This document shows, one piece after another, positions 15,916-56,120 of a DNA stretch of 64,000 nucleotides. Numbering within the stretch: the stretch's first letter is position 1; every line of letters starts with the position of its first letter. Where the stretch lies: IMG/VR virus record IMGVR_UViG_3300042564_004560; one strand, written 5' to 3'. Under the pieces are notes generated by a model, which saw only the letters and a list, made by a program, of their open reading frames with translations, was not told where the DNA came from and ran no database searches. The DNA comes from an uncultured virus (IMG/VR IMGVR_UViG_3300042564_004560). Taxonomy: Duplodnaviria; Heunggongvirae; Uroviricota; Caudoviricetes. Position numbers and translations under genes: made by a program.

Positions 15916-15923
15916 TATAAATA
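15916..15923 (-). promoter_or_regulatory. Putative late promoter motif TATTTATA
   Basis: Plus strand TATAAATA, 12 nt before minus-strand ATG 15903. Confidence 0.6.
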
Positions 15924-17661: not shown

Positions 17662-17662
17662 A

Positions 17663-21686: not shown

Positions 21687-21687
21687 A

Positions 21688-22740: not shown

Positions 22741-22744
22741 ATTA

Positions 22745-24356: not shown

Positions 24357-24374
24357 TTAAATTATTTTAATTGT

Positions 24375-24758: not shown

Positions 24759-24761
24759 AAT

Positions 24762-25742: not shown

Positions 25743-25743
25743 A

Positions 25744-26532: not shown

Positions 26533-26537
26533 CTATA

Positions 26538-29397: not shown

Positions 29398-29401
29398 AAT
29401 T

Positions 29402-30202: not shown

Positions 30203-30203
30203 A

Positions 30204-35402: not shown

Positions 35403-35403
35403 A

Positions 35404-37032: not shown

Positions 37033-37035
37033 AAA

Positions 37036-38354: not shown

Positions 38355-39565
38355 TATACAATTGATTTATAGAATTCCGCTCTTGTTTTTGTTACGATGT
38401 TAAGGTCATATTTGTCTTTTACAGTCTCATATAGTCTTTCACCCATATCTTTTGCTAAGTTAGGGTTTTTTACTAACTTTTCAATAAATTTCGCCCAATC
38501 AGAATGATTTCTATTTTCATCAACTAACATAGCGTTTCCATCAACAAACTCTCCATTTTTTAAACAATGTTTTAAGTCGATAGTATATGGTCCTAAATCA
38601 GATGCTATTAAAGCCTTTTTATAGAATCCCGCCTCAATTACTTTTAATTGAGATTTCATTCTATTAAACATAGTGTTTTTAATTGGTGATAAAGAAACAT
38701 CAAACTTAGAATAATTTTTAGCATATGATGTTACAGGTTTTGTCCAAACTCTAACATATGATTCATCTAAATCACCTGTATAGATATCTTGATTGTAGTT
38801 TACCAAATGTTTTTTATATTCATCTGATACAATAGAATAATCTTGTGTAAATATTTTTTCATATTGAGCCCAAACGGTTTCATGTGGAAGAATATTTCGT
38901 TTTGTTTGTTCTCCTGTTTGAGCGTTAATTTCAGTAACAGTTCCTCTTGTGTCAAAACCACAAAGAACATATTGAACTTTATCTTTAAGAGATTTTATTT
39001 TACTAAACCCTTGGTCTAACAATTGTATGTCGTGTAAGTGAGAAGAACCACCTAACCAACCAATTCTAAGTTTATTAGACTCTAATGTTGGTTCTTTAAA
39101 TTGAGATTCGTTAGGGTTAATTGCGTTAGGGAATACAACAACATTCTTGTTTAATTTTTTGATTTCATCGGCAAATATTGTGGTTGTAGTTGTTACATAC
39201 TTTGCAACTTTTAAATTCTCAACAATCTTTTCGTTGATTTTGTGAACTTTAATAATATCGTGAATTGGGTGCTCTTTTCCTGGCATCCAATAATCGTCAA
39301 TATCACAAATAGTAATTACCCCTAAAGAATTTAATTTTTCAATAAGTTGTTTGGCCCTTTCAAAATCAGGCCCAATACTTCTATGGAATGATACTATTTG
39401 GTATTGAGTCCAATAATTAATATCGTCAAATGGTGGGTCATATACAATATCGACATAAAAATCATCAGGATATTGATTTTGTAAAAAAATGTGAGGGTCT
39501 ACTGACCTAAACTTACCAACTCCTGTTCTATCGGATGGTACTACTAGTACTTTAATTTTTGACAT
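38354..39565 (-). CDS. GT-B fold glycosyltransferase
   Basis: DIDDYW, IGWLGGSSHLHD, FNRMKSQLKVIEAG. Confidence 0.8.
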   Translation of the reverse strand: MSKIKVLVVPSDRTGVGKFRSVDPHIFLQNQYPDDFYVDIVYDPPFDDINYWTQYQIVSFHRSIGPDFERAKQLIEKLNSLGVITICDIDDYWMPGKEHPIHDIIKVHKINEKIVENLKVAKYVTTTTTIFADEIKKLNKNVVVFPNAINPNESQFKEPTLESNKLRIGWLGGSSHLHDIQLLDQGFSKIKSLKDKVQYVLCGFDTRGTVTEINAQTGEQTKRNILPHETVWAQYEKIFTQDYSIVSDEYKKHLVNYNQDIYTGDLDESYVRVWTKPVTSYAKNYSKFDVSLSPIKNTMFNRMKSQLKVIEAGFYKKALIASDLGPYTIDLKHCLKNGEFVDGNAMLVDENRNHSDWAKFIEKLVKNPNLAKDMGERLYETVKDKYDLNIVTKTRAEFYKSIV

Positions 39566-39581
39566 AAATTTATTTTATACT

Positions 39582-39589
39582 CAAAAGTA
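39582..39589 (-). promoter_or_regulatory. Bacteroidota-type -7 element TACTTTTG heading the glycosylation operon
   Basis: Plus strand CAAAAGTA, 16 nt before ATG 39565; no well-spaced -33 element. Confidence 0.45.
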
Positions 39590-39618
39590 TAAGAATTTAA
39601 GTCAAATAAGAAAAGGCG

Positions 39619-40254
39619 TTAAGATAATTTTTTAATTTTGGTTACTTTACCTTCAAACACATGTTTACCAACTTTAAAACTAAAGATTTCATTAGATTTT
39701 TCAGCACTTTCTGTGACTAACCCATTTTCTTTTAACGCTTTGGTAATCGCCTCATTAATCATTTTTTGAATTAATCTGTAGTTAATTCCCTCTCCTGTAC
39801 TTTTTTGAGTTTGAGATACAGGTTGTTGTGTGGTTTTTGTAGATTCGGAAACATAGTTGCCTTCATTTCCAGTTTTCATTAACCTTGTAGCCCTTTCAAT
39901 TAAATCATTAGATAATGTTGCTTCTTGTTGTTGTGGTTGATTAATAGGATGTTCCATCATTAATCTTTTAATTTCGTCAGGTAGTTTTGAATTTTTAATG
40001 GCATCAACACTTGTATTACCTACTGGTTTTGTATTCACTCTTGGAAGTTCTGACAAATAAGGTTGTTGACCTTGTCCCATAGATGGTTGTTCTTGTAGAA
40101 ATTCTTGAGGTATATTATATTTTGCTTGTGGCATACTAAATTCTTGAACCATATTTTGTGGTTGTGAATTGGTAGGACTACCCTTAATATTGTCTGTTTT
40201 GTCCATAATAGCCTTAGACGCTACTAATCTACTCATTAAATCATTTTCGTTCAT
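39619..40254 (-). CDS. Hypothetical Gln/Pro-rich protein
   Basis: ATG 40254 (MNENDLM) lies just after the stop of the upstream gene. Confidence 0.6.
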   Translation of the reverse strand: MNENDLMSRLVASKAIMDKTDNIKGSPTNSQPQNMVQEFSMPQAKYNIPQEFLQEQPSMGQGQQPYLSELPRVNTKPVGNTSVDAIKNSKLPDEIKRLMMEHPINQPQQQEATLSNDLIERATRLMKTGNEGNYVSESTKTTQQPVSQTQKSTGEGINYRLIQKMINEAITKALKENGLVTESAEKSNEIFSFKVGKHVFEGKVTKIKKLS

Positions 40255-40255
40255 A

Positions 40256-40726
40256 TTATGTAATGTTTTCTTCTGGTGTTGGTGTTGTTGTTGGCGTTGC
40301 AGGTGTTGGATTAGTTGGTAATGGTTGTGGGACTGTTGGTTGATTATCAAATTTTGCATTGATAATTACACTGACCATACTCTTATCACCGTTAAAATTA
40401 TAATTAGGTCTTGGAGTATTGTAAACTTCACCTGTTGGTTTAATTGATAATATCTTATCTAATCTAAAAAGTCTCCACCCTGGTAAGGGCTGTTCACCTT
40501 TATATGCGGTATGGGAAGCACCTTCATCATCCCATGCTCTTAAAACTTTATTACCTGCTTTACTTACCCCTAGACAAACAGGTTCAATTTCTCTAATACC
40601 CCTACCTCCTGGTTCATCACCATCGTAATAAACAATAACTTTTTGTCTCTGTTTAATAGCGTCAACAACACTATCAATAGAGGCAATTTCGCATATTAAA
40701 CCTTTAAGAGTATCTTTTAATTTCAT
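40256..40726 (-). CDS. Stand-alone WYL-domain protein
   Basis: AIKQRQKVIVYY...REIEPVCLG...LRAW...WRLFRLDKI; Pro/Thr tail. Confidence 0.7.
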   Translation of the reverse strand: MKLKDTLKGLICEIASIDSVVDAIKQRQKVIVYYDGDEPGGRGIREIEPVCLGVSKAGNKVLRAWDDEGASHTAYKGEQPLPGWRLFRLDKILSIKPTGEVYNTPRPNYNFNGDKSMVSVIINAKFDNQPTVPQPLPTNPTPATPTTTPTPEENIT

Positions 40727-42348: not shown

Positions 42349-45300
42349 ATGGCATATCAAAATATTAATCAATATAATTTTAGGAGATGGGGTATTAAAC
42401 CCGTCAACGAAATCACGGACATATGTCTCGCATCAGATGAGAAAGACTATGACCAAGAGGTGATATTCTCCCCATTATTAATAGGTGAGGACGATGGTAA
42501 TAGAATGCCATTTAAGTTTGACTTTAATAGTTCGGGTACCACAATTTGTCAAACAGGTGGATGTAATTTTGATACCAATACTATCGTATCTGAAAATTAT
42601 TGGAACCCTGACCACCTTGACCCAAACTTTTGTCCTGTAGTTACAAATTTATGTGACGTTGGGTTAACTGGTATAGATAATGGTCTTGTTAAGAATATGT
42701 CAGGTGAGACAATTCAAATTACTACAGGACTTTATACTTCATCTGCTGACACATATAGTAGATACAAATACGATAGGAGAATGAAAATGCATCCTATCAC
42801 AGGATTTACTACAACTCAAAATAGATTATGGAACGATAATTCATATTCATATGACATGTCTTATGTCACCAATGGAACACCTGTTGGATATTTTGCAAGA
42901 TTAAATGGTGGGTTCTTCCAAGGATTTTATAAATTATCTGATTATGATTATCAAGTATTCCCTCAAAGAGTTTCATTAGGTTGGACTGCGGAGTTTGTAT
43001 TGAAATATAGATGGACAGGTGATACTAATGTTGGATTAAACGCTCGTTATCCTGACAATAAAGGAACATTCTTTTATATGGGGGCAAGAGCTGAAAATAA
43101 ATTCTATCATTATGCTGACGGTTCACCAAAACAAGACACAGGTTATACAAGAGTAACATCAGGATTAACTTGTATGCATACTTGTGGATGTGCAAGTAGT
43201 GCCAATACCTCATCAGAGTGTCTTCAAGTCTATCAACCATCAGGAGGAACAATAACACATTGTACTTGTGGATGTCCTTGTGATTGCCAAACAACCGCCA
43301 AATACCCTGAAAAAGACCCATTATATGATGGAGTCTCAAATGGTATATCTCTTAGACTTAGTGGTGATACAGGAAACCCAAGGTTATGTGTTAAGACTTA
43401 TAGAATTACCGGAGGATGTGAACATAGTGGAACTTGTCTTACAGGATTAACATATCATACAGGAACCTCAGTTACCGAATGGTGTTCAACCAGAGGTATC
43501 TTTAGTGATTGTAGTGGAACCACATACCCTAATGTAGAACATTGGGTTCAAATTGATGCGGTATTCCAAAGAAAAGAATGGTTTGATAAATGTGACCTAT
43601 ATGAAAAGGGTGGTCTTGGGTTATTAGTTAAACAAGAATATTTTGCAACTATTGAAAACAGAAGTCCTACATTAGTTGAACCACCTTTGACACACGAACA
43701 ACCTTATAACCCACCATATACCGAAGTCGTTACATTTAACGATATGTGGACCGAAGAACAAAAATATAGATTAGGTAATCTTAAATTTTATGTTAACGGT
43801 AAATTGTTTATGGTTGCGGAAAACTTTGAAGAAATTATCCCAAGACTTCTTAATGTTGAAAAAGAAAAACAAATTGGTGTTGGATATAACATCTCTGTGG
43901 GTGGGGGAACTCAAGGATTACATGATAATCTTACTTTTTCTGCAGGATGTCCTGCCGAGTTAAGTGGTATTACATATCAACAAGACCCTGAATGTTTAAC
44001 AACAAATGATTTAACACATACCGAATATTCAGGACTTACAACTCAAATTAGGTTGGAAGAAATATTTGGAGGTAGTTTGATTGGGGATATCAGTGCATTT
44101 AGAATGTACACCGAACCATTAAATGCCTCTCAAATTAAACATAATTTTAGAATATTAAAATATAAGTATGACCTACTTGACCCTAATTGTTTAAATTGTA
44201 GAATCATTATTCCAAATAATGATTTAATTTACATTTCAGTACCATGTAATGACTTAGGATATACATTATATCCATGTCCAACCGTGACACCAACAATGAC
44301 TCAAACTCAAACTCCTACTCCAACAAATACACAAACTTCTACTCCAACAAATACACAAACACCAACAAATACGCAAACTTCTACCCCAACAAACACAAAA
44401 ACACCAACTCCTTCAGTTACTGTAGGATTAACACCTACCGCAACTCCAACTAATACTGAGACGCCAACTAAGACGCCAACAAACACACCAACCAATACTA
44501 AAACTCCAACAATGACACCAACTAACACAACAACACCTACGGTAACACCAACTAATACTAAAACCCCAAATCAAACTCCAACTAACACATCAACTCCTAC
44601 AATAACACCAAGTAATTCTTCATGTAAGAGTTATTTGTTATTTGGTGGAATTCAAAATCAAACAACCTTTGTTGGTATTGATTGCGATGGATTTGCTTTT
44701 GATACCTTCTTAGATGTGTATGCTACTCAAGTTATTTGTGCTGAATCTGTTCAAATTGCCGACGGGGATGGTAATATTACACTATTAGGTAGTTGTCCTT
44801 TACCAACCCCAACTCAAACCCCTACTAATACCGTAACAAAAACTCCAACTCAAACTCAAACCCCAACTCAAACTAATACAAAAACACCAACTCAAACTCC
44901 AACCAATACAATGACTCAAACACCAACTAATACAATGACACCAACTCAAACCTCAACTAATACAATGACACCAACTCAAACCCCTACTAATACAATGACA
45001 CAAACCCCAACTAATACAATGACACAAACCCCAACTAATACAATTACACAAACCCCAACTAATACAGAAACTCCAACGCAAACACCAACACCTACAAGGT
45101 CTAGAACCGAATTTGTTAGTTGTTATGGATTGACACAAGTTGATGCATGTTCATGTTTAGATAATTCTACAATATGGGGGGATAACTCTAATTTTGATGA
45201 AAACGCATTTTTCTATGATTCAGAATTTGGTGGTAATACAACAGATTTAATAGGTTATTACAATTATTCAAATGTTGTTGTTGAACTTAATTCAAATGGG

Positions 45301-46062
45301 GATATTGTGGGTAATTATAATCTATGTCCAATTCCAACCCAAACTCAAACACCAACTCAAACTCAGACTCCTACGAATACTGAGACAGGAACTTCTACCC
45401 CAACCCCAACAAACACGGAAACTCTGACTCAAACACCTACACCTACAAATACCAAAACACCAACTCAAACACCAACTCAAACAAATACAGAGACCCCAAC
45501 TAGTACACCAACACCAACACCTACACCTAATTATAATGTAACATTTATCAATAATTCAACAAACGGAATAATAGAAGCCTTTGCGGATAACAGTGGACAA
45601 ATACCATTATTTGATTCAACAAGTTCATTGCCTTTGAATGGTGGTGGCCAAGTACTTTTTGCAAATCATGGGTTAACTTCTAATTCACCTCAAATTGCGT
45701 TAAATGGTACAGGTTCTGTAACAATTCAAATTAAAATTAATGGAAATGTTTTAGTGGATTCAGAGACTGTTGTACCTAGCTCAATTGGTGTAACACCAGG
45801 AGGTGTTCCATTGCAAGCATCTGATGTTTTAATTATAACAATTGGAGATATTCCACCAACACCGACACCAACTCAAACAGAAACTCCAACTCAAACACCA
45901 ACAAATACTGAGACCCAAACTCCAACTCCAACAAATACTAATACCCCGACTAACACCGAAACACCAACACCGACACCAACACCAACTGAATTAGTTTTCT
46001 TGGCTCAAGAAAATTATTTTACCATACAACAAGAAGATGGTTTTAATATTTTCGTAACCTAA
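42349..46062 (+). CDS. Large virion protein: Cys-rich, LamG/concanavalin-like N-terminal region plus four Thr/Pro-rich mucin-like tracts
   Basis: HWVQID...LKFYVNGK...GDISAFRMYTEPLNASQIKHNF (LamG-like); TPTxT repeats. Confidence 0.7.
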   Translation: MAYQNINQYNFRRWGIKPVNEITDICLASDEKDYDQEVIFSPLLIGEDDGNRMPFKFDFNSSGTTICQTGGCNFDTNTIVSENYWNPDHLDPNFCPVVTNLCDVGLTGIDNGLVKNMSGETIQITTGLYTSSADTYSRYKYDRRMKMHPITGFTTTQNRLWNDNSYSYDMSYVTNGTPVGYFARLNGGFFQGFYKLSDYDYQVFPQRVSLGWTAEFVLKYRWTGDTNVGLNARYPDNKGTFFYMGARAENKFYHYADGSPKQDTGYTRVTSGLTCMHTCGCASSANTSSECLQVYQPSGGTITHCTCGCPCDCQTTAKYPEKDPLYDGVSNGISLRLSGDTGNPRLCVKTYRITGGCEHSGTCLTGLTYHTGTSVTEWCSTRGIFSDCSGTTYPNVEHWVQIDAVFQRKEWFDKCDLYEKGGLGLLVKQEYFATIENRSPTLVEPPLTHEQPYNPPYTEVVTFNDMWTEEQKYRLGNLKFYVNGKLFMVAENFEEIIPRLLNVEKEKQIGVGYNISVGGGTQGLHDNLTFSAGCPAELSGITYQQDPECLTTNDLTHTEYSGLTTQIRLEEIFGGSLIGDISAFRMYTEPLNASQIKHNFRILKYKYDLLDPNCLNCRIIIPNNDLIYISVPCNDLGYTLYPCPTVTPTMTQTQTPTPTNTQTSTPTNTQTPTNTQTSTPTNTKTPTPSVTVGLTPTATPTNTETPTKTPTNTPTNTKTPTMTPTNTTTPTVTPTNTKTPNQTPTNTSTPTITPSNSSCKSYLLFGGIQNQTTFVGIDCDGFAFDTFLDVYATQVICAESVQIADGDGNITLLGSCPLPTPTQTPTNTVTKTPTQTQTPTQTNTKTPTQTPTNTMTQTPTNTMTPTQTSTNTMTPTQTPTNTMTQTPTNTMTQTPTNTITQTPTNTETPTQTPTPTRSRTEFVSCYGLTQVDACSCLDNSTIWGDNSNFDENAFFYDSEFGGNTTDLIGYYNYSNVVVELNSNGDIVGNYNLCPIPTQTQTPTQTQTPTNTETGTSTPTPTNTETLTQTPTPTNTKTPTQTPTQTNTETPTSTPTPTPTPNYNVTFINNSTNGIIEAFADNSGQIPLFDSTSSLPLNGGGQVLFANHGLTSNSPQIALNGTGSVTIQIKINGNVLVDSETVVPSSIGVTPGGVPLQASDVLIITIGDIPPTPTPTQTETPTQTPTNTETQTPTPTNTNTPTNTETPTPTPTPTELVFLAQENYFTIQQEDGFNIFVT
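44977..45066 (+). repeat. 24-bp tandem repeat encoding QTPTNTMT
   Basis: CAAACCCCAACTAATACAATGACA-like units, about 3.7 copies, imperfect. Confidence 0.8.
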
Positions 46063-46071
46063 ACTTAATAA

Positions 46072-46079
46072 TATTTATA
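46072..46079 (+). promoter_or_regulatory. Putative late promoter motif TATTTATA
   Basis: 13 nt before ATG 46093. Confidence 0.65.
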
Positions 46080-46092
46080 AAATAAAAAGAAT

Positions 46093-46662
46093 ATGCCGAA
46101 TTTACCAATATCACAATTACCTGAAATAACCGCCACGACATCGAATGCTGAATATGTTGTTGCTCAAGATGGTGTTACATATAAAATTAAAAGAGGTTAT
46201 ATGGCGAGCGGTAAATTATATGGTTCGTTTTATCAAGAAAATAGTATATCAGGATTAACACCTGATACTGCATATTCTATGAGTGCTTCGACAACATCCT
46301 CTAATAATGGGATAACGGTTGTTGATGGGTCAAAAATGACAGTTCAAAGTGGTGGAACATTTAATATACAATTTTCCGCTCAATTACAAAAACAACAAGG
46401 AGGGTCATCAGAAAGTATTACAATATGGTTGAGGAAAAATGGTGTTAATGTTGATTGGTCGTCAACTGATATTACATTCGCTAATAATAATCAACTTGTG
46501 GTGGCAGCTTGGAATTTTGTGGAAACATTATCAGCGGGTGAAAATTTGGAAATTATGTTTTCAATAACGGATACTGAAATAATCATATACGGAAACCCAT
46601 CAAGAATAACACCAATAAGACCGGCAATTCCATCTGTTATTATAACAATGGTTCAAATATAG
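46093..46662 (+). CDS. Fiber/decoration-like protein (ISxLP N-terminus, C1q/BclA-like beta domain)
   Basis: PISQLP...; GTFNIQFSAQL, IWLRKNG, RPAIPSVIIT; paralog of 47826. Confidence 0.55.
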   Translation: MPNLPISQLPEITATTSNAEYVVAQDGVTYKIKRGYMASGKLYGSFYQENSISGLTPDTAYSMSASTTSSNNGITVVDGSKMTVQSGGTFNIQFSAQLQKQQGGSSESITIWLRKNGVNVDWSSTDITFANNNQLVVAAWNFVETLSAGENLEIMFSITDTEIIIYGNPSRITPIRPAIPSVIITMVQI

Positions 46663-46664
46663 AA

Positions 46665-47237
46665 ATGAACACAACAGACTGTAATTATTTTAGGATAACA
46701 AATTATAATACCGTACAAGAAGGTTATTATAGATGGACAGGATGTACTGATATTGTTAGTGTTAGTACTATAGACCCACTTAAAACCGAATATGTTTGTG
46801 CAAAAGATATTCTTGTTGAAAGTTATAGTGCTCCTTTAGATATTGTCTTTGTAGGATTATGTCCGTCAACAACACCTACACCAACCGTCACCTCAACTCC
46901 AACACAAACATCAGTAACACCAACACCAACATCTACTTCTCCCACACCAACTGTTACACCAACACCAACTGTTACACCAACAACTGTTTTTATGTATAAT
47001 TTACGAACAGGAGGTTGGTATCAAGATGTTTGTGGTTCTGTTAATATGACGGCTAATCCAGCAAATGTGACCATTTATACATCAAAACTTTTTTCAAATT
47101 TAGTTAAAGGTGATTATGTTTATGGTGATAAATCTTTAACAATACCACCAAATGGTACCAATTTTACAATATCCGATGGTGCCACATTTATACAATTAGG
47201 GGGTAATCAAGTTATTAATGTCGGAATTTGTGGATAA
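46665..47237 (+). CDS. Thr/Pro-rich virion-associated protein
   Basis: Two Cys-bracketed domains joined by TPTPTVT tract. Confidence 0.6.
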   Translation: MNTTDCNYFRITNYNTVQEGYYRWTGCTDIVSVSTIDPLKTEYVCAKDILVESYSAPLDIVFVGLCPSTTPTPTVTSTPTQTSVTPTPTSTSPTPTVTPTPTVTPTTVFMYNLRTGGWYQDVCGSVNMTANPANVTIYTSKLFSNLVKGDYVYGDKSLTIPPNGTNFTISDGATFIQLGGNQVINVGICG

Positions 47238-47262
47238 TGAATTATAAAGTAAAAAGTGTCTA

Positions 47263-47269
47263 TATTTAT
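47263..47269 (+). promoter_or_regulatory. Putative late promoter motif TATTTAT
   Basis: 4 nt before ATG 47274. Confidence 0.6.
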
Positions 47270-47273
47270 TAAC

Positions 47274-47813
47274 ATGGCAGATTGTGGTGTATTAATTTCT
47301 AGTGTAAATTTGAGTGGATTAACAACCGAAGTTACGTTCTTTCCTCAAACGGGAGGTACCGTAGATTTAGGGTATCAAGTTTTTCCATTTAGCTATGTTG
47401 CGGATTATTATTATGGGACATATAATTGTTATGTACCAACATATGCGTATACCTATACAATTGCCATATTAGGACCAACTCCAACTCCAACACCAACCAA
47501 TACGACAACACCTACTGTGACTCCGACTCAAACACCTAGTGTAACTCCAACTAATACGGAAACTTTAACACAAACTCCAACCCAAACGACTACTCAAACT
47601 CAAACACCTACTAATACAGGAACACCTACTCAAACACAAACGACTACTCAAACTCAAACACCTACTAATACAGGAACACCTACTCAAACGCCAACCTACA
47701 CTCAAACCCCAACCCCAACAGAAATACCTATAGTTCTTATAAACCCAATCCTAATTGATATTCCAAACGAATATCTTAGTGTTGGGAATGACGAATATCT
47801 AAAATTTAATTAA
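47274..47813 (+). CDS. Thr/Pro-rich virion-associated protein
   Basis: ATG 47274 (MADCG); long TPTQT tract. Confidence 0.6.
   Translation: MADCGVLISSVNLSGLTTEVTFFPQTGGTVDLGYQVFPFSYVADYYYGTYNCYVPTYAYTYTIAILGPTPTPTPTNTTTPTVTPTQTPSVTPTNTETLTQTPTQTTTQTQTPTNTGTPTQTQTTTQTQTPTNTGTPTQTPTYTQTPTPTEIPIVLINPILIDIPNEYLSVGNDEYLKFN
47583..47689 (+). repeat. 54-bp tandem duplication
   Basis: CAAACGACTACTCAAACTCAAACACCTACTAATACAGGAACACCTACTCAAAC occurs at 47583 and 47637. Confidence 0.85.
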
Positions 47814-47825
47814 AAACACAAAAAT

Positions 47826-48404
47826 ATGTTGACAGGAAAAACAATTAGCGAATTACCACAATTAACAGGAGTGACCGATACTATGGTACTACCCGTAGAA
47901 TTAAGTGGAGTGACTTATCATGTTGATTATGTTCAGATTGCACATAAAGCAAATGCTGCCTACTATAATACCGAGACACAAATAGTTTCTGGGTCTAATA
48001 CACCATCAATTGTATTACTAAACACTATTGTAAATGAATCAAATATTAGATTGGTTAACAATTCAAAAATTTATGTTGACTTAGACGGTACCTACCAATT
48101 GGGAGTATCTTATCAATTAGGGAAAGCAACACTTGCAGGTGGTGCAGCAACAATTGTTTTTTGGGTTAGAGTTGATGGTGTTGATGTAACAGATAGTGCA
48201 GGGGAAATTGTTTTAGTTAATAATACAGATAAAACATTACCTTTTATCCCATATTATTTTGATTTAACCGCTGGTCAATACATTGAACTTGTCTTTGCAT
48301 CGGCGGATGACACCGCTAAAGTCTTCACCGTACCCGCTTCATCATCACCATATGTTAGACCTTTAATTCCATCGACATATGTTACAATAAACCAATTATC
48401 TTAA
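47826..48404 (+). CDS. Fiber/decoration-like protein (ISELP N-terminus, C1q/BclA-like domain)
   Basis: KTISELP; GTYQLGVSYQL, FWVRVDG, RPLIPSTYVT; paralog of 46093. Confidence 0.55.
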   Translation: MLTGKTISELPQLTGVTDTMVLPVELSGVTYHVDYVQIAHKANAAYYNTETQIVSGSNTPSIVLLNTIVNESNIRLVNNSKIYVDLDGTYQLGVSYQLGKATLAGGAATIVFWVRVDGVDVTDSAGEIVLVNNTDKTLPFIPYYFDLTAGQYIELVFASADDTAKVFTVPASSSPYVRPLIPSTYVTINQLS

Positions 48405-48463
48405 TAATAGGTAATAAAAATATAAAATTTAAACCCTATTTAATAAATTAGAATAAATCGTAG

Positions 48464-48471
48464 TATTTATA
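48464..48471 (+). promoter_or_regulatory. Putative late promoter motif TATTTATA
   Basis: 18 nt before ATG 48490. Confidence 0.65.
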
Positions 48472-48489
48472 AGAAAATAGAAATATACC

Positions 48490-50400
48490 ATGGCATGTAG
48501 TAAATATACTTTAACGAACACCGGTTCAACAATTGTGAACTTTAATTATAGAAGATGCGATGACTCTCTTTGGGAGTATCAAGTTGAATTGAACCCTAAC
48601 CAAACAAAAAACATTTGGTTAATTAATAATACATATTCAATATCTCCTGTTTATGTTAATTCGGTTTCTTTGTTTAATCAAGGTGCGTTTCCTCCTGTTG
48701 GTCAAACGGCAACGCCAACTCCAACTGCGACTCAAACCCCAACTATAACTCCAACTCAAACTCAAACTCCTACGCCGAGTACGACTGCGACTCAAACCCC
48801 AACTCAAACTGGAACACCAACTCAAACTCCTACTAATACGCAAACTCAAACTCAAACTCCTACTAACACCGAAACTCCAACTCAAACTCAAACCCCTACT
48901 AACACCGAAACTCCAACTCAAACTCCAACTCAAACACCAACCCAAACTCAAACACAAACTCCAACTAATACAGAAACCCCAACTCAAACTCAAACTCCAA
49001 CTAACACAGAAACTCCAACTCAAACACAAACACAAACAGTGACAGGAACGGCGAATGTAACTCCAACAGTAACTCCAACTCAAACTCAAACACCAACTTC
49101 ACCTCTTCAAGTATTTAACATATTTTCAGGAGACAGTTCAAATGAAGCTTGTAATTCTGGAATTTCAACAACACTATACGCATTTAATCCAACATTTGAT
49201 GCAAATACTCAATTCTATAATGACCCATCAGGAATTGTTACAATTGATTTAACAGGATTCTATAGTAACAATTCATCTGTTACTGAATTAAGTTCAGGTG
49301 GAACTCAACTAGGGTTCTATAGTCTTTGCTCATTATTACCAACTTCAACTCCAACAGCGACAACTACTCAAACACCTACAAATACACCAACACAAACAAC
49401 AACACCAACAGCAACATTTGGTTATTATACCTATAGTTTAGGTACGGGTAGCACAACAAATGAAGCATGTGCTGATTTTAGTTCAGCCCCTAATACAGTT
49501 TATGGAACAGTTGCGGGTGGAGTAGGACCAAATTTAGGTGAATACTTATACGTTAATACATCATTGACAACACCTGTTGCTGATGGTTATTACTCTAACG
49601 GTGTTGATTGGTATCAAGTATCAGGTGGAGCAGGACAAATTACTACAACAGACCCTAATGGATGTGTGGGATTAATTACTCCAACTCCAACATCAAGTAA
49701 TACTCCAACCCCTACAGAAACACCAACTAATACACCAACAGTAACAGAGACACCAACAGGAACACCAACCCAAACACCAACTAATACTGAAACTTCAACA
49801 CCAACTCCAACTCAAACACCAACTCCAACATCTCCTCTTTTCGCATTTAATGTGTTCTCAGGAAGTACTTCAAATACTGCATGTACGTCTGGAGTTGCAA
49901 TAACACTACACGGATTTAACGCATTGTTTGACGCAAATACTCAATTCTATAATAATTCAGACGGAACTGTTACGATTGATTTAGCAGGTTTCTTTAGTGA
50001 TGGAACATCTGTTACACAATTAAGTTCAGGTGGAGCTCAAATAGGTTCTTTCACACTTTGTTCAGTAGTACCGACAGTAACTCCAACAGTAACTCAAACT
50101 TCAACACCAACAATGACACCAACACAAACAACAACACCAACAGCTACATTTGGTTATTACACTTATAGTTTAGGTACAGGTACAACGGCAAATTTAGCAT
50201 GTATTGACTTTGGTTCCGCACCTAACACAATTTACGGAACAGTTGCAGGTGGTGTAGGTCCTAATGTTAGTGAATATTTATATGTTAATACTGCACTAAC
50301 AATCCCAGTAACGAATGGTTATTACTCTAACGGTGTAGCTTGGTATCAAGTAACAGGTGGTGCAGGACAAATTACCTCATCAGACCCTAACGGTTGTTAA
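48490..50400 (+). CDS. Mucin-like Thr/Pro-rich protein with duplicated Cys-bracketed domains
   Basis: ~130 aa TQTPT tract followed by an A-PT-B-PT-A'-PT-B' architecture. Confidence 0.7.
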
Positions 50401-50431
50401 TAATTTAAAATAAAAATAAAATATATTATTC

Positions 50432-50461
50432 AAAACCCTCGACATTCTCGGGGGTTTTTTT
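50432..50461 (+). terminator. Intrinsic terminator
   Basis: AAAACCCTCGA-CATTC-TCGGGGGTTTTTTT. Confidence 0.82.
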
Positions 50462-50486
50462 ATGTTTATCATAAAATATACAATAT

Positions 50487-51752
50487 ATGAAAATTTTTAT
50501 TCAGATTGCGTCCTATCGAGACCCACAATTAGTACCAACTATTAAAGATATGTTGGCAAACGCCAAAAGACCCAAAAATTTAGTGTTGTCAATTGCAAGA
50601 CAATTTGCTGAAGAAGACGGGTTTGATAACTTAGATGAATATAGAGATGATAAGAGATTTAAAATCTTAGATATCCCATATCAAGAAGCCAAAGGAGTTT
50701 GTTGGGCAAGAAACTTAACTCAACAACTTTATGACGGTGAAACATATACCTTACAAATTGATTCTCATATGAGATTTGTTAAGGATTGGGATGATATCCT
50801 AATCAAAATGATTAAGGGTCTACAAAAAGATGGTTATAAGAAGCCTCTACTTACGGGTTATGTACCATCTTTTGACCCTGAAAATGACCCAGCAGGAAGG
50901 TCTCAAGAAGCTTGGAGAATGGTGTTTGATAGATTTATTCCTGAAGGAGCAGTATTCTTCTTACCTGAAACAATTCCAGGTTGGAAAGAAATGAAAAAAC
51001 CTGTTACCGCAAGATTCTATTCTGCCCACTTCTGTTTTACATTAGGAGAATTTTCAAAAGAAGTTCAACACAACCCTGAATATTATTTCCACGGAGAAGA
51101 GATTTCAATTGCTGCTAGAGCTTACACTTGGGGTTATGATTTATTCCATACTCACATACCTGTTGTTTACCACGAATACACTCGTAAAGGTAGAACAAAA
51201 CAATGGGACGATGATAAAACTTGGGGTGATAAAAACAAACATTCTCACCATACAAATAGAAAACTATTTGGAATGGATGGTGAAAAACAAGAAGGACATG
51301 ATGGACCTTACGGATTTGGAACTGTTAGGACTTTAAAAGATTATGAAAAATATTCAGGTCTTTTATTTGAAAAGAGAGCAATTGACAAATATACTTTAGA
51401 TAAAAATTATCCACCAAACCCATATAACTTTGAAACAGAACAAGAATGGAAAGATAGTTTCTGTATGGTGTTTAAACATTGTATTGATATTGGATATTCT
51501 CAAGTTACTGAAACTGATTATGACTTTTGGGTTGTTGCGTTCCACGGTAAAGAAGATAAAACATTATTTAGAAAAGATGCCGATAAGAATGAAATTGCAG
51601 GATTTATGAGAGACCCTGATAAATATTGTAAAGTTTGGAGAGATTTTCAAACAGACGAATTACCAGAATACTGGGTTGTGTGGCCACACTCAGAATCAAA
51701 AGGGTGGTGTGATAGAATTACAGGTCAATTAAACCACAATGTTGTAAGTTAA
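50487..51752 (+). CDS. GT60-like polypeptide alpha-N-acetylglucosaminyltransferase (Skp1/mucin GlcNAc-T family)
   Basis: IFIQIASYRDP, GVCWAR, LQIDSHMRF..WD, YFHGEEISIAARAYTWGYD. Confidence 0.82.
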   Translation: MKIFIQIASYRDPQLVPTIKDMLANAKRPKNLVLSIARQFAEEDGFDNLDEYRDDKRFKILDIPYQEAKGVCWARNLTQQLYDGETYTLQIDSHMRFVKDWDDILIKMIKGLQKDGYKKPLLTGYVPSFDPENDPAGRSQEAWRMVFDRFIPEGAVFFLPETIPGWKEMKKPVTARFYSAHFCFTLGEFSKEVQHNPEYYFHGEEISIAARAYTWGYDLFHTHIPVVYHEYTRKGRTKQWDDDKTWGDKNKHSHHTNRKLFGMDGEKQEGHDGPYGFGTVRTLKDYEKYSGLLFEKRAIDKYTLDKNYPPNPYNFETEQEWKDSFCMVFKHCIDIGYSQVTETDYDFWVVAFHGKEDKTLFRKDADKNEIAGFMRDPDKYCKVWRDFQTDELPEYWVVWPHSESKGWCDRITGQLNHNVVS

Positions 51753-52486
51753 TGAATATTACCGATATACCTAAATTTATTGTTAATTTAGAAAGAAGAC
51801 CTGACCGATTAGAACACATCAAAAAAGAGATGGAATATATCGGTTGGGATTATGAAATATTTAAAGCAGTTGATTTAAATAATCATGGGGGGTGTACATT
51901 ATCCCATGTAGAAATATTAAAAATTGCTAAAGAAAGAGGTTATGAATCAGTAATGGTTATTGAGGATGATTGTACATTCTTACCATATTCAAAAGATTTG
52001 ATAAATAAAATTGAAACTGAAACAGGTGAATTTGAATTTGGGATTATTAATCTTGCTCCCACTTTAAATAGACCTGTAAATCGTAGTGAGGAATTACCGT
52101 TATTTTTAGACATAACAAATCTTCCACCAAAAAAAGAACACGAACGAGGGATATTTGCAACTAATATGATATTATATCATAAGTCAATTTATGATAATGT
52201 TATTGAAATGGAGAAACCTGAAATTTTAGGGTATTATGCTATTGATGATTATATCTATCAATTTATTTTACCAATCAAACAAAGTTATTCTCCAATATTA
52301 CCAATCGCCCCTCAAATGAGTAGTTGGTCCGATGTATCTCAGGGTCAGTATAATAATTTTTATACTCAAACTTATAATTGGAATGGGTATAGTCCTTGTA
52401 AAATACCTTCGGAATATTTAAACGGAACATTAACACAAGATTTAAAAAACAATAAAGAACACAAACAATTTACATATGTCAGTTAA
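51752..52486 (+). CDS. Glycosyltransferase family 25
   Basis: VNLERRPDRL, GCTLSH, VIEDDC. Confidence 0.82.
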   Translation: MNITDIPKFIVNLERRPDRLEHIKKEMEYIGWDYEIFKAVDLNNHGGCTLSHVEILKIAKERGYESVMVIEDDCTFLPYSKDLINKIETETGEFEFGIINLAPTLNRPVNRSEELPLFLDITNLPPKKEHERGIFATNMILYHKSIYDNVIEMEKPEILGYYAIDDYIYQFILPIKQSYSPILPIAPQMSSWSDVSQGQYNNFYTQTYNWNGYSPCKIPSEYLNGTLTQDLKNNKEHKQFTYVS

Positions 52487-53363
52487 AGTTAAATTTATTA
52501 CATCAATTTATAGTGATTTATATGGTACAGAATTTGGAGGTAGAATGAGTAGGGGAGGGCACTATAGTTATAGTTTACTTTCTTTATTAAAAATGACCGA
52601 CGCAGATTTTTTATGCTATACCTCAGATAGAGAAATAGAACCATTAAAACAATTTTTTTATGAGACCCATTCAATATCTCCTGAAAAATTAAAATTTGAA
52701 ATTTTTGATATTTCAAAAACAAAATTCCAACATTTAATTGAAGAATATAAAGATGTTGAAATGACTAAAAGGTCTGATAGATGTGTTGAAATTCAATACT
52801 CTAAATTTCATTGGTGGTGGAACGAAGATAAGTCCTACGATTATTATTATTGGATTGACGCAGGATTATCTCATTGTGGGTTAGTACCTAACAAATATTT
52901 AAGTGGAACTCATCCTGAACAAAGATATTATGAATGTAGTTTATTTAATAATGATTTCTTACATAATATGATTGAAGATACTGGTGATAAATTCTTAATT
53001 ATTGGTAAAGATAACGATAGAAACTTTTGGTCTCAAACTTTAGACCCAAAATGGTACACAGAGTATGATAGGTCTCTTCATATTATAGGAGGATTGTTTG
53101 GTGGCCATAGAGATAAATGGGATAAAATAGTTAATATGTTTGAAGACTATGCGGAAAAAACTATTGTTGATGCAAAAAATTTACATCACGAAGAACCAAT
53201 TATGACTTTGATGTATTTTAACCATAAAGAATTATTTGAAAGAAAACATTTTGATATTTGGTGGTGTAGAGATAATGCACCCGCAGGAGTAACGGATGAA
53301 ATGTTTACATTAAACATAAGCTTTTTTAAAATTTTAGAAGAATTAAATAGAATATATGAGTAA
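52476..53363 (+). CDS. HtrL/YibB-like putative glycosyltransferase
   Basis: YYWIDAG, IIGGLFGG, HEEPIM; paralogous to N-terminal domain of next gene. Confidence 0.55.
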   Translation: MSVKVKFITSIYSDLYGTEFGGRMSRGGHYSYSLLSLLKMTDADFLCYTSDREIEPLKQFFYETHSISPEKLKFEIFDISKTKFQHLIEEYKDVEMTKRSDRCVEIQYSKFHWWWNEDKSYDYYYWIDAGLSHCGLVPNKYLSGTHPEQRYYECSLFNNDFLHNMIEDTGDKFLIIGKDNDRNFWSQTLDPKWYTEYDRSLHIIGGLFGGHRDKWDKIVNMFEDYAEKTIVDAKNLHHEEPIMTLMYFNHKELFERKHFDIWWCRDNAPAGVTDEMFTLNISFFKILEELNRIYE

Positions 53364-55029
53364 TATAACTTTAGTAACGGGTATTTGGGATATAGGTAGA
53401 GGAAACCTAACAGAGGGATGGAGTAGACCATTCCAACATTATTTAGACAAATTTGAAAAATTATTAGAGGTTGAAGAAAACCTTATAATTTTTGGTGATG
53501 AAGAATTAAGAGAATTTGTTTTCCAAAAAAGAAAACACGAAAATACACAGTTTATTGTTAGACCTTTAAGTTGGTTTACAGATTCAGAGTTTTTTCCTTT
53601 AATTCAAAACATTAGGACTAACCCTGAATGGTATAATCAAGTTGGTTGGTTATCAGAGTCAACTCAAGCAAAATTAGATAATTACAATCCTTTGGTGATG
53701 TCTAAAGTTTTTTTATTAAATGATGCCAGAATTATGGACCAATTTAATTCAGAATATATGTTTTGGATTGATGGTGGATTAACAAATACGGTACATCCAG
53801 GATATTTTACACATGATAAAGTTTTAGACAAGTTATCAAAATATGTTTCTAAATTTTCATTTGTTAGTTTTCCATACGATGCAGAGACTGAAATACACGG
53901 GTTTAATTACCCAAAATTAAATGAATATGCAGGAAACAAAGTAACTAAAGTTTCTCGAGGAGGATTTTTTGGTGGACCAACACATACAATCTCAGATATT
54001 AATGGGATATATTATGGGTTATTAAAATCTACATTACAAGAGGGGTATATGGGTACTGAAGAATCAATCTTTAGTATTATGTCATATAAACATTCTGATT
54101 TAATTAACTATTTTGAAATAGAATCAAATGGATTAATTGGTGGGTTTTTTGAAAGTTTAAAAAACGATGAACTTAAAGTAAAAAATGAAAATGGGACTAA
54201 AGAAATTAATTCATTGGACACAGGTAAAGTTGGATTATATGTCATTACCTTTAATAGTCCAAAACAATTTAGAACTCTTATTGATTCTATGTTGGCGTAT
54301 GACGGAGATTACATTTTAAAAACTAAAAAGTTTTTATTAGATAACTCTTCTGATTTATCAACTACTGAAGAATATTTGAAAATTTGTGAGGAATATGGGT
54401 TTGAACATATTAAGAAAGATAATTTAGGTATATGTGGAGGAAGACAATGGATTGCAGAACATTTTGAAGAAACAGATTTAGACTATTATTTGTTTTTTGA
54501 AGATGATATGTTTTTTTATCCAAATGAAGGTGCCGTTTGTAGAAATGGATTTAGCAGATATGTACCAAACTTATATTCAAAATCTTTAGAAATAATGAAA
54601 AAAGAAAACTTTGATTTCTTAAAGATGAATTATTCTGAGTTCTATGGTGATAATGGAACCCAATGGGCGTGGTACAATGTACCTCAATCAGTTAGAGATG
54701 AATTTTGGCCGGGTAAACCAAGACTTCCTGAGATGGGACTTGACCCTAATGCACCAAAAACCAAATTTAACTCGGTATTATCACACAAAAGTATTCCATA
54801 CGCTGTTGGTGAAGTTTACTATTGTAATTGGCCTCAAATTGTTAGTAGACCTGGTAATAAAAAAATGTTCTTGGATACAACATGGGCACACCCATTTGAA
54901 CAAACTTGGATGAGTCATATGTATCAATTGGTTAAAAAAGATGAATTGTATCCAGGTTTATTACTTATGACACCAACAGAGCATGATAGATTTGAACATT
55001 ATAGTAGAGAGTTGAGAAAAGAATCATAA
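53356..55029 (+). CDS. HtrL/YibB-like domain fused to GT-A glycosyltransferase domain
   Basis: TLVTGIWDIGR, FWIDGG, GGFFGG, GTEESIF; C-terminal FFEDD. Confidence 0.6.
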   Translation: MSNITLVTGIWDIGRGNLTEGWSRPFQHYLDKFEKLLEVEENLIIFGDEELREFVFQKRKHENTQFIVRPLSWFTDSEFFPLIQNIRTNPEWYNQVGWLSESTQAKLDNYNPLVMSKVFLLNDARIMDQFNSEYMFWIDGGLTNTVHPGYFTHDKVLDKLSKYVSKFSFVSFPYDAETEIHGFNYPKLNEYAGNKVTKVSRGGFFGGPTHTISDINGIYYGLLKSTLQEGYMGTEESIFSIMSYKHSDLINYFEIESNGLIGGFFESLKNDELKVKNENGTKEINSLDTGKVGLYVITFNSPKQFRTLIDSMLAYDGDYILKTKKFLLDNSSDLSTTEEYLKICEEYGFEHIKKDNLGICGGRQWIAEHFEETDLDYYLFFEDDMFFYPNEGAVCRNGFSRYVPNLYSKSLEIMKKENFDFLKMNYSEFYGDNGTQWAWYNVPQSVRDEFWPGKPRLPEMGLDPNAPKTKFNSVLSHKSIPYAVGEVYYCNWPQIVSRPGNKKMFLDTTWAHPFEQTWMSHMYQLVKKDELYPGLLLMTPTEHDRFEHYSRELRKES

Positions 55030-55045: not shown

Positions 55046-55423
55046 ATGGAATTTTATATTAAAAAGAATGCAACATTACCTGTGTTAAAAATGCAGGTAG
55101 TTAAAGATGGTAGGGCCGGTTACATGCAACTAATGCAAGACTTGGAGGTCTCTACTATTTTTTTTACTATGATTGAAGAGGAGACAGGTATTCCTAAAAT
55201 TGTCTCCGCTCCTGCTGAAATAGTTAATTTAATTTTACCTGAAGGTTCTGACCCCGAATATTATATCTATTTTAAATTTACAGAAAGAGATACAAATACA
55301 CCGGGTCGATATCAAGGACAATTTTTAATTAAAAACGACGAAGGAAATTTAATTCTTCCGATTAGAGAAGAACTTTATATTAATATCCAAGATAGTTTTA
55401 TTTCAGAAACTGCTTGTTGTTAA
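55046..55423 (+). CDS. BppU-N-like (baseplate upper protein-type) small structural protein
   Basis: FYIKKNATLP...DTNTPGRYQGQF pattern. Confidence 0.5.
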   Translation: MEFYIKKNATLPVLKMQVVKDGRAGYMQLMQDLEVSTIFFTMIEEETGIPKIVSAPAEIVNLILPEGSDPEYYIYFKFTERDTNTPGRYQGQFLIKNDEGNLILPIREELYINIQDSFISETACC

Positions 55424-55426: not shown

Positions 55427-55912
55427 ATGAAACTAACTAATTTATTAACAAAGATAATTTTAGAGGAAGTAGGTACTACTATTCCTGTTACTAAATTTGT
55501 AACTGATGGTTATTTGATAACACTTAATGCCAGTAAACATCAGTGGAAAGATAGACAAGGAAGTAAATCTCTTGAAGATATTGTTGAAATATATGAGGAT
55601 AATTTTTTAAACAATCCTAAATTTTATGATAGAGTTGGCGTTCCAAACAGGTTAATTAAAAATGTATTTATTAATGATTTTTATATTATTAAAAAAAGGA
55701 TGTCAAATTTAAATAATCCCAAAAATTCAGTGGTTTTTATAAAAGAAGTTGGTGATGAATTAAATTTACCTCAATATATGAATTTTATTGAATTTTTGTT
55801 ATTCACGGAAGACTTAATAAACTATACAATAGTTACTTCCGTATTTTCAGAATATGGTGATTACCTAAAAACTTTTGGAAAAACTAAAAATAGTCCAAGA
55901 TTTATGTTGTAG
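55427..55912 (+). CDS. Hypothetical protein with MKLTNLLTKIILEE leader
   Basis: 161 aa, very AT-rich. Confidence 0.6.
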   Translation: MKLTNLLTKIILEEVGTTIPVTKFVTDGYLITLNASKHQWKDRQGSKSLEDIVEIYEDNFLNNPKFYDRVGVPNRLIKNVFINDFYIIKKRMSNLNNPKNSVVFIKEVGDELNLPQYMNFIEFLLFTEDLINYTIVTSVFSEYGDYLKTFGKTKNSPRFML

Positions 55913-56087: not shown

Positions 56088-56093
56088 TGAATG

Positions 56094-56120
56094 ACCCAAC
56101 ATAAAAGTGTTGGGTTTTTT
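56094..56120 (+). terminator. Intrinsic terminator
   Basis: ACCCAACA-TAAAAG-TGTTGGGT-TTTTT. Confidence 0.85.

Follow-up and report, generated by a model that had tools for sequence, protein, structure and literature searches.

The 64-kb stretch of DNA analyzed here (hereafter the window) belongs to the record of an uncultured virus (IMGVR_UViG_3300042564_004560) and contains four genes encoding long threonine- and proline-rich (PT) repeats, followed on the same strand by an operon of glycosyltransferase (GT) genes whose first product belongs to family GT60. Based on gene content, enzyme family and fold, solubility, synteny, genome-level co-occurrence and operon structure, we consider it rather probable that the locus encodes a phage-borne, self-contained, cytoplasmic system for the mucin-type O-glycosylation of proteins. 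Components of such a system that are present are a GT27/GT60-homologous initiator gene and long Thr/Pro-rich tandem repeats as candidate acceptors.

The virus record is a single sequence of 129,618 bp, estimated by CheckV to be 43% complete. Every absence reported below is therefore limited to under half of the genome, which, at this completeness, probably measures about 300 kb. Judged by its genes, the virus is a large T4-like myovirus, a lake phage with a lytic-type, T4-like genome and a GC content of ~0.30. The head genes encode a T4-type terminase, a Gp20 portal, a prohead protease and a Gp23 capsid protein, a family-B DNA polymerase is also encoded, and tail genes (sheath, gp19-like tube, baseplate) are located downstream of the window. 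By capsid protein, the cultured phages nearest to it are Flavobacterium phage immuto and Microcystis phage Mel-JY01, each with ~42% identity.

The first PT gene (42349-46062, + strand) encodes PT1237, a 1237-aa candidate fibre-like glycosylation acceptor, in which a 641-aa N-terminal anchor is followed by five PT tracts (residues 642-1217) between small Cys-bracketed modules. In PT190 (46665-47237, +; 190 aa), a 46-aa PT tract joins two small globular modules, and PT185 (47256-47813, +; 185 aa when read from a GTG codon, 179 aa from the in-frame ATG at 47274) consists of an N-terminal module and two PT tracts with 88 tract residues. PT636 (48490-50400, +; 636 aa) shows five PT tracts between the duplicated modules B (residues 207-281 and 452-527, 63% identical) and C (residues 312-395 and 556-636, 80% identical). 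The PT proteins thus resemble beads on a string, with Cys-bracketed modules of ~60-85 aa, of at least three recurring types, and PT stalks between them. Two non-PT genes are interleaved with the PT genes, p189 (46093-46662, +) and its paralogue p192 (47826-48404, +; 29% identical, E 5e-20). A fifth PT gene, encoding PT453 (453 aa, 225 tract residues), occurs 4.4 kb before the window, at positions 38429-39790 of the genome. A preliminary description of this DNA had listed four genes with long TPTxT tracts, totalling hundreds of Thr residues; all four open reading frames (ORFs) were confirmed on the + strand, with a start at either 47256 or 47274 for PT185.

With tracts defined as 12-aa windows containing at least 66% Thr plus Pro, the four genes encode 723 tract residues, including 337 Thr, 146 Pro, 69 Gln, 43 Asn and 24 Ser. 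This corresponds to 47% Thr and 20% Pro, against a background of 7.4% and 4.2%, respectively, in the proteome of the genome. Another Thr is found at position +2 for 307 of the 337 tract Thr, and a Pro at position -1, +1 or +3 for 287 of them (85%). The PT repeats are far beyond chance, since codons matching TxTPTxTxTPTxT were counted 36 times on the + strand across the 129.6 kb of the record, with no instance on the reverse strand. The DNA of the tracts consists of degenerate minisatellites (periods of 6-66, 64-100% matches), in agreement with the PT genes being very unequal in number and length among close relatives, in which GT60 stays 86-100% identical. On the opposite strand and outside the PT cluster, a WYL-domain protein (40256-40726, -) ends in a 30-residue PT-rich tail.

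The GT60 enzyme and its partners

The GT60 gene (50487-51752, +) encodes a soluble enzyme with a GT-A domain, a beta-rich C-terminal domain and no transmembrane segment. The motifs IASYRDP, QIDSHMRF and HGEE, on which the GT60-like assignment had first been proposed, are all present, and the profile and structure searches bear the assignment out. Using the Pfam family PF11397 (GlcNAc) as a proxy for CAZy GT60, we obtained a match with an E-value of 1.2e-64 (219.4 bits, cut-off 21) in two stretches over most of the 352-position model, which matches none of 14 control genomes; the match to phrog_24687 has an E-value of 4.5e-166. In an alignment of 44 GT60 sequences (34-90% identity), D92, H94, E204, E205 and H229 are invariant. 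The first two form the DxH motif (D92-S-H94) inside QIDSHMRF, a motif described as replacing the GT-A DxD motif in GT27 and GT60 (PMC7185993), and H229 is, from its conservation, a candidate for the third metal ligand, as in GT27.

The AlphaFold2 model of the enzyme (predicted local distance difference test score, pLDDT, 94.9) shows the extra beta-rich C-terminal domain at residues 326-414. With Foldseek, the first ~45 PDB matches of this model are all GT27 polypeptide GalNAc-transferases (ppGalNAc-Ts). With VIA-align, ppGalNAc-Ts likewise occupy all of ranks 1-29 (Z 18.9-22.2, root mean square deviation 3.2-4.3 A over 260-279 residues), and other GT-A enzymes, of the polysaccharide type, drop to Z values of 17.9 or less. 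No PDB chain was found for GT60 by sequence, with the single sequence or with a profile (best E-value 0.42), and the PDB match lists contained no structure of a GT60 enzyme. The predicted structure places the enzyme in the GT27/GT60 clade, with a GT-A fold, and together with the sequence motifs makes it a candidate initiating polypeptide N-acetylhexosamine (HexNAc) transferase.

PF11397 is a large family, with 7,401 proteins at E-values of 0.001 or less among 7,999 scored candidates, and with 4,366 representative clusters. Some representatives are giants that reach 2,461 aa and contain 2-4 GT60-like domains (P0122, P0123, P0124, P0128 and others). None of the 150 family representatives listed contains a long PT tract itself; one has 35 such residues.

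The genes of GT60, GT25, p295 and HtrL557 overlap start to stop. The GT25 gene (51752-52486, +), whose start overlaps the GT60 stop, matches PF01755 in two stretches (E 4e-14, 53.4 bits against a cut-off of 24) and encodes a candidate elongating enzyme according to its family; it is variable among relatives. HtrL557 (53356-55029, +) combines an HtrL/YibB-like N-terminal domain (residues 3-252) with a weak GT-A-like C-terminal domain. It matches HtrL_YibB (PF09612) with an E-value of 2.3e-19 (70.5 bits, cut-off 24.1) and scores 76.8 against the NCBIfam equivalog TIGR02192, far below the cut-off of 264.9, so that by profile scores it is a relative of the HtrL family and not a YibB equivalog. The protein encoded between the two, p295 (52476-53363, +), has no Pfam match even at an E-value of 1. 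It resembles the N-terminal domain of HtrL557 (BLASTP E 0.039), with the common motifs WID[AG]GL, GG[LF]FGG and EE, and matches, with a score of 0.97, an atlas cluster in which 51% of the members belong to PF09612; at best, these similarities make it a remote HtrL-like protein. Of the operon first described as a GT60-like enzyme, a GT25 and two HtrL/YibB-like genes, GT60, GT25 and HtrL557 are thus supported by Pfam, and p295 only remotely.

HtrL557 is the most constant partner of GT60, a homologue being present, within the flanks retrieved, in 121 of the 126 viral loci with at least 5 kb of downstream sequence. In relatives, the interval from GT60 to HtrL557 comprises 2 to 10 same-strand genes, encoding glycosyltransferases (GT10, GT11, GT25, GT7-like, GT34, PLOD-type, RXYLT1-like) as well as methyl- and acetyltransferases, an aminotransferase, UGM and a HAD phosphatase with a nucleotidyltransferase. 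Similar functions are found here in a separate cluster of soluble nucleotide-sugar and glycan genes on the minus strand (20133-39565). This cluster encodes four GT2 enzymes, a GT1/4-like enzyme, GMD, an RfbH/ColD-like aminotransferase (DegT), an Fcl-like reductase, GT11, GT10, UGM, a methyltransferase, UGDH and a GT2_5+GT4 protein, with PhoH, dUTPase and exonuclease genes interspersed. The fucosyl, colitosyl, galactofuranose (Galf) and methyl genes that the preliminary description had placed near 20.9-39.6 kb are real, on the minus strand at 20.1-39.6 kb, and the cluster is a candidate donor and capping toolkit, which we would link to the PT proteins by inference from gene content.

The same cluster resembles an O-antigen toolkit (GMD, ColD/RfbH-like and Fcl-like proteins, GT11, GT10, UGM, UGDH and GT2s), and the names HtrL/YibB and GT25 come from lipopolysaccharide loci. 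Both features would fit enzymes that remodel an envelope glycan of the host (lipopolysaccharide, capsule or surface glycoprotein) by working peripherally on lipid-linked intermediates of the host, for instance in order to block superinfection. We regard this explanation as improbable. No flippase, polymerase or initiating phosphoglycosyl transferase was found with Pfam, and none of the 61 ORFs of the window encodes a polytopic membrane protein; at most one hydrophobic 19-mer occurs per protein, the single matches being Rossmann N-termini. A lipid-carrier pathway (Wzx/Wzy or ABC) was judged unlikely, all of its membrane components being absent among these ORFs. Furthermore, GT60/GT27-type enzymes are polypeptide transferases, the genome is of the lytic, T4-like type, and envelope remodelling leaves the link between the GT60 and PT genes unexplained.

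The C-terminal domain of HtrL557 has weak matches to GT2 (E 0.006), to phrog_842, annotated as 'beta-glucosyl-HMC-alpha-glucosyltransferase' (E 4e-4), and to TAGT (E 0.11). The last two raise the question of glycosylation of the phage DNA at hypermodified bases, as in T-even phages and further viruses whose DNA bears glycans, and DNA-hypermodifying phage glycosyltransferases are known (Pyle 2024, as cited in PMC12619734). Nevertheless, we consider this hardly conceivable here: the only thymidylate synthase-family protein passes the ThyA equivalog cut-off (TIGR03284, 294 against 108 bits), no hydroxymethylase was seen in the 43% of the genome available, the fold and family of GT60 are polypeptide-directed, and the link with the PT genes would again stay unexplained. 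DNA glycosylation was judged unlikely because the curated cut-off identifies the thymidylate synthase as a normal ThyA. This 474-aa thymidylate synthase (L083:647-2071, -) carries large insertions, since the models of ~266-296 positions match it in 3-5 stretches.

PT proteins and transcription signals

Indirect features of their sequences make the PT proteins look structural and fibre-like. Fibres and receptor-binding proteins usually combine a conserved anchor with variable distal parts. Among the 120 PT1237 homologues listed, the N-terminus is 81-95% identical, the total length ranges from 687 to 1496 aa, and the distal domains are swapped (LamG_3, PF03382, PF21722). No usable Pfam match was obtained at E-values of 1 or less for ten pieces of PT proteins, namely the anchor and nine modules, and the atlas clusters matching such pieces are phage-only orphans, with a weak LamG_3 lead. 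As for the interleaved proteins, the C-terminal ~145 aa of p189 are common to the C-termini of proteins in other phages (12 phage records), of which one is annotated as 'C1q-like roll fold' and one as 'hyaluronidase-like', and the p189-homologous gene of phage phiAC-1 comes after the capsid gene; p192 gives a weak LamG_3 hint (E 0.032). In phage XacN1, ORF350 contains PT/PS tracts together with a ConA/LamG-like domain and is located between genes for a 'structural protein' and for head completion.

A structural role is also suggested by the motif [AG]TATTTAT, which is common to PT genes and head/tail genes. Among 153 genes, 24 have it in sense orientation at most 50 nt before the start, as compared with 5 that have its reverse complement there, and 24 of the 55 occurrences in the genome fall within ~3% of the strand positions. 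The 24 genes include those for the portal, prohead protease, sheath, tube, PT453, PT1237, p189, PT636 and p125. The distance to the start is 8-43 nt in the 24 upstream regions (e.g. those at window positions 42349, 46093, 48490, 55046, 1423 and 4761), with 17 nt for PT1237, 27 nt for PT636 and 12 nt for p125. We consider [AG]TATTTAT a candidate late-type promoter motif. It was preferred to the classical T4 late promoter, TATAAATA, of which few copies precede starts (only 4 of 38 occur at most 60 nt upstream of one) and which is not enriched. Together with the variable distal parts, these signals suggest that the PT proteins may be located in the virion.

Two terminator-like hairpins, the best of the region, bracket the GT operon and two small ORFs. 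The first, which is also the best-scoring site, is a hairpin with a T-run (50432-50458, +; 11 pairs, 5 GC) in the 86-nt gap between PT636 and the GT60 gene, and the second (56093-56116, +) marks the end of the GT unit, ahead of the gene for DNA polymerase. Of the small ORFs, p125 (55046-55423, +) encodes a short protein that is conserved in most relatives at the position after HtrL557 (45-93% identical, syntenic) and has no family in Pfam or PHROG-type profile searches; p161 (55427-55912, +) is the last ORF before the second terminator.

Nine metatranscriptome runs contain small shares (0.06-0.15) of this sequence. Among the contigs from four runs of four studies, some pieces show 0-2 differences over 151-316 nt on PT1237, PT636, p295, HtrL557 and p125, whereas the pieces on GT60 are diverged. 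At most, this indicates that RNA libraries of lakes contain near-identical sequence, as DNA carry-over is possible, repeats cross-map and gaps in coverage carry no information.

Elsewhere, the genome encodes a ClpP-type protease (L083:15567-16247, -) and a 670-aa ClpB/Clp-ATPase-like protein (L085:4487-6499, -). In the window, a 512-aa protein (60481-62019, -) shows Fe/Mn superoxide dismutase domains at residues 36-226, followed by ~290 C-terminal residues without assignment.

Co-occurrence of GT60 genes and PT repeats

We analyzed 136 viral GT60 loci, many of them from near-identical contigs. For GT60 sequences at least 75% identical to that of the window, PT ORFs are found upstream on the same strand in all 73 loci with at least 3 kb of upstream sequence, and downstream in none of 99. 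For nine GT60 records with no PT tract up to 10 kb from the gene, the search was extended to the whole record; G010, the only near-complete one (97%), contains 59 matches to the PT pattern, more than 100 kb away from GT60. A GT60 homologue is present in only four of 50,697 phage records, namely XacN1, Xoo-sp13, CM1 and RAS14. The genomes of XacN1, Xoo-sp13, RAS14 and CM1 show 34, 34, 9 and 9 matches, respectively, to the pattern TPTxTxTPT, against 0 in each of six GT60-negative relatives of the window phage or of this cultured lineage, namely immuto, Mel-JY01, LR756508, RsoM2USA, XbC2 and 121Q; reversed-pattern controls gave 0 throughout. The Fisher probability of this distribution (4/4 against 0/6) is 1/210 at face value, for four positives that form one clade, so that it amounts in effect to one extra independent contrast.

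GT60 genes are also found in contigs labelled as bacterial. The closest of these matches (68-71% identity; L327-L332 and L341) come from metagenome-assembled genomes (MAGs) labelled Saprospiraceae, Bacteroidia and Melainabacteria, on contigs that are short or have a GC content of 0.34-0.39 and carry an HtrL557 homologue alongside GT60; such contigs probably come from phages and entered the MAGs during binning, or else they hint at the host. PT-tract ORFs occur at most 10 kb from GT60 in 29 of 78 bacterial loci, where alternative frames of high-GC DNA can mimic tracts. In four Burkholderiaceae loci (L343, L361, L374, L391), a GT60-like gene is located ~4-5 kb from a PT-tract-bearing gene for a VgrG-type spike of the type VI secretion system, with Phage_GPD and gp5 C-terminal domains, in a neighbourhood conserved in several genera. 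In Gemmatimonadota (L336:8438-9232 and L338:9212-9952), a PqqD-like ORF, of a type that recognizes peptides, lies directly upstream of adjacent GT60 and HtrL557 homologues, a neighbourhood that hints at peptide glycosylation in bacteria.

Several results count against a glycosylation system acting on the PT proteins. The association weakens with divergence: for GT60 sequences of 65-75% identity, PT ORFs are found upstream in 8 of 17 and downstream in 11 of 19 loci, and for those of 55-65% identity in 1 of 8 and 2 of 8, respectively. Apart from G010, the GT60 records searched whole show no PT pattern, but these eight are fragments (9-56%). In the reverse scan, GT60 was present in the flanks of 6 among the 47 PT-pattern viral contigs listed; of nine long PT contigs searched whole, four have GT60 elsewhere and five do not. 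At least three PT-rich phages without GT60 are near-complete or complete (G001, 100%; G005, 94%; G007, 100%); the PT gene of G001 has no glycan gene beside it, and that of G005 only a GT1 gene ~7 kb away. PT repeats can therefore exist without GT60. By their DNA polymerases, the four cultured phages with GT60 represent one lineage, and the neighbours of bacterial GT60 genes are heterogeneous (VgrG, Rv2525c-like, PqqD-like). At the locus itself, the GT60 gene lacks an exact [AG]TATTTAT motif and, judging from the hairpins, the GT operon is a transcription unit separate from the PT genes. The PT1237 anchor has no homologue in the 50,697 phage records, and its AlphaFold2 model from a 28-sequence alignment (641 aa, mean pLDDT 33.9) shows no usable fold. 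The 43% completeness of the record must be added to these points.

The serious rival explanation is that the PT tracts are unglycosylated stiff spacers, that the glycosyltransferases decorate another soluble phage acceptor (capsid, tail or another fibre), and that the adjacency reflects a shared hypervariable accessory region. PT-rich phages without GT60 or an adjacent glycosyltransferase speak for it, as do the decay of the GT60-PT adjacency with divergence and the terminator and different upstream motifs that split the PT genes from the GT operon; the Burkholderiaceae PT tract near GT60, being part of VgrG, may also be a mere linker. However, plain spacers do not account for a co-occurrence that persists at more than 100 kb of separation in G010 or for the 4/4 against 0/6 distribution in the cultured lineage. 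In addition, the closest folds of GT60 act on just such Thr/Pro-rich sequence, and no other Thr-rich acceptor was seen in the record. We therefore hold this rival to be unlikely, though to be taken seriously. What the preliminary description had expected of co-occurrence is thus borne out in close relatives and in the cultured phages, and not in the PT-rich phages devoid of GT60. As for the position of the operon directly after the PT genes, the short gap agrees with the preliminary description, and the terminator within it makes the operon a unit of its own.

An L216 contig of 202 kb (61% complete) from a phage contains an ORF of 5,472 aa (3325-19740, -), of which 5,051 residues belong to PT tracts, an extreme phage 'mucin'; no PF11397 match was found on the available sequence of this contig.

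A variant of the proposed system would use hydroxyproline of the PT tracts as the acceptor, with Pro first hydroxylated and then glycosylated, as in the Skp1 pathway of Dictyostelium, which involves a GT60 enzyme; the Hyp-rich glycoproteins of plants are comparable. The high share of Pro in the tracts (20%) would allow it, and oxygenases of PF13640 are encoded in G019 and G021, two relatives with GT60. Against it, no PF13640 or PF03171 match was found in the 43% of this genome at hand, none is present in the 100%-complete, GT60- and PT-positive G002 and G020 (two of four near-complete relatives), and the oxygenase genes, where present, are tens of kb from GT60. The hydroxyproline route was judged unlikely in view of the missing P4H-type oxygenase here and in two complete relatives, and we consider it very improbable.

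Comparison with known systems and the proposed pathway

The protist GT60 enzymes, T. cruzi pp-alpha-GlcNAcT/TcOGNT-2, Dictyostelium Gnt2 and the Skp1 enzyme Gnt1, share PF11397 and the DxH motif with the phage enzyme. Skp1 Gnt1 is a soluble, cytoplasmic GT60 enzyme, which the phage enzyme resembles more closely. The mucin-type enzymes of protists, in contrast, are membrane-bound Golgi proteins (PMC3769586), and the phage enzyme differs from these in being soluble, cytoplasmic and encoded by a bacterial virus, and in its extra beta-rich domain (residues 326-414). The characterized members of the family initiate mucin-type chains on peptides rich in Thr with flanking Pro. The T. cruzi enzyme acts on Pro-flanked Thr runs and needs Mn2+, and its chains are extended with galactopyranose (Galp) and Galf (PMC3769586). 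This acceptor preference would fit the 85% of phage tract Thr with a nearby Pro, and the phage, for its part, encodes UGM.

The GT27 ppGalNAc-Ts of animals and Toxoplasma are the closest solved folds, with the DxH motif and a GT-A domain followed by a C-terminal beta domain. Unlike them, the phage enzyme belongs to GT60, shows ~10-17% identity to them in structural alignments and has no PDB sequence match. The likeness of the C-terminal domains concerns the beta-rich layout, a ricin-type lectin nature being putative.

Among phages, the glycosyltransferases of mycobacteriophages are reported to put O-linked glycans on the phages' own structural proteins (Freeman et al. 2023, cited in PMC12619734), at the C-termini of capsid and tail-tube subunits (cited in PMC12619734). 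The phage described here likewise encodes glycosyltransferases with its own proteins as candidate acceptors; as far as the mycobacteriophage system is described there, it differs from the present one in that the candidate acceptors here are long PT stalks, the initiator is of the GT60/GT27 type, and the cassette is large and swappable.

A further parallel is the Xanthomonas jumbo phage XacN1 (Yoshikawa et al. 2018), which has at least two virion glycoproteins, tentatively ascribed to the two phage glycosyltransferases ORF328 and ORF334 (PMC5852040). These glycoproteins would be indirect evidence for dense O-glycans on PT repeats. ORF334 is a GT60 homologue (46% identical), the p295 homologue shows 31% identity, and full-length HtrL557 is 41-42% identical to its homologues in XacN1 and RAS14. 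In addition to these three homologues, XacN1 shares many PT-repeat genes and a PT plus ConA-like protein with the system described here; it differs by a carbamoyltransferase in the cassette and by the absence of GT25 in tblastn searches. In the available part of the XacN1 paper, ORF334 is not linked to GT60, to mucin-type initiation or to PT proteins (PMC5852040).

Giant viruses offer a more distant comparison. The fibres of mimivirus carry protein glycosylation encoded by the virus, and we know of no GT60-led system with Thr/Pro repeats described in giant viruses. Like the proposed phage system, chloroviruses and mimivirus encode soluble enzymes for the glycosylation of structural proteins, along with nucleotide-sugar genes; unlike it, they have eukaryotic hosts and different linkages and enzymes. 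The glycosylation of chlorovirus Vp54 is cited in the XacN1 paper (PMC5852040).

We propose the following pathway for the phage. Late in infection, fibre-like proteins would be made as small globular modules strung on (TPTxTx)n stalks. The soluble, metal-dependent DxH enzyme GT60, a sister of the animal ppGalNAc-Ts, would put the first sugar, most likely a HexNAc from the UDP-sugar pool of the host, on Thr residues of the stalks. Translationally coupled GT25, together with the HtrL-like p295 and the two-domain HtrL557, may then extend the chain, which is possibly capped with fucose-type, colitose-type, Galf, uronic or methylated sugars supplied by the 20-39 kb cluster. Since glycan-tailoring genes are swapped between GT60 and HtrL557 in relatives, the glycan would differ from strain to strain. 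The idea of the preliminary description that the phage primes and extends O-glycans on its own proteins is thus favoured by the enzyme family and fold and by the co-occurrence, which is nevertheless not obligatory. The roles it had suggested for the glycans, such as shielding from proteases or baiting of SusC/D foragers, would be speculative. To the broader proposal, that large lake phages and an independent phage lineage on Xanthomonadaceae have an entire mucin-type pathway, like that of eukaryotes, at work in the bacterial cytoplasm, initiated by GT60 on fibre stalks, diversified by cassettes and resulting in a variable glycocalyx, we give an even chance.

To our knowledge, few glycosylated phage particles are chemically documented, namely those of mycobacteriophages and the bands of XacN1. 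Glycosylation of phage virions as such is known already, and the authors of XacN1 suspected its own glycosyltransferases. As far as our literature searches reach, the GT60/GT27-type initiator, its tie to PT-repeat fibre-like proteins and the bracketed, swappable cassette appear to be new in print: our searches on GT60 in phages and on virion O-glycosylation found no publication linking GT60 to phage PT-repeat proteins, and a virome preprint names GT60 in a list of viral auxiliary genes but does not analyze it further. GT60 has been described as restricted to prokaryotes and protists (PMC7185993).

If the proposed pathway is correct, the environmental phages concerned, which form a very abundant group, use soluble enzymes of their own to build mucin-like appendages dense in O-glycans. 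The resulting variable glycocalyx of the virion would affect adsorption, stability or recognition, and models of how these phages recognize hosts, how stable their particles are and how they interact with grazers or mucus would change. The locus would also offer a compact toolkit for making mucin-type glycoproteins in the bacterial cytoplasm. Finally, phages would represent a large prokaryotic reservoir of the GT27/GT60 clade of polypeptide transferases, which would bear on the origin of this clade.

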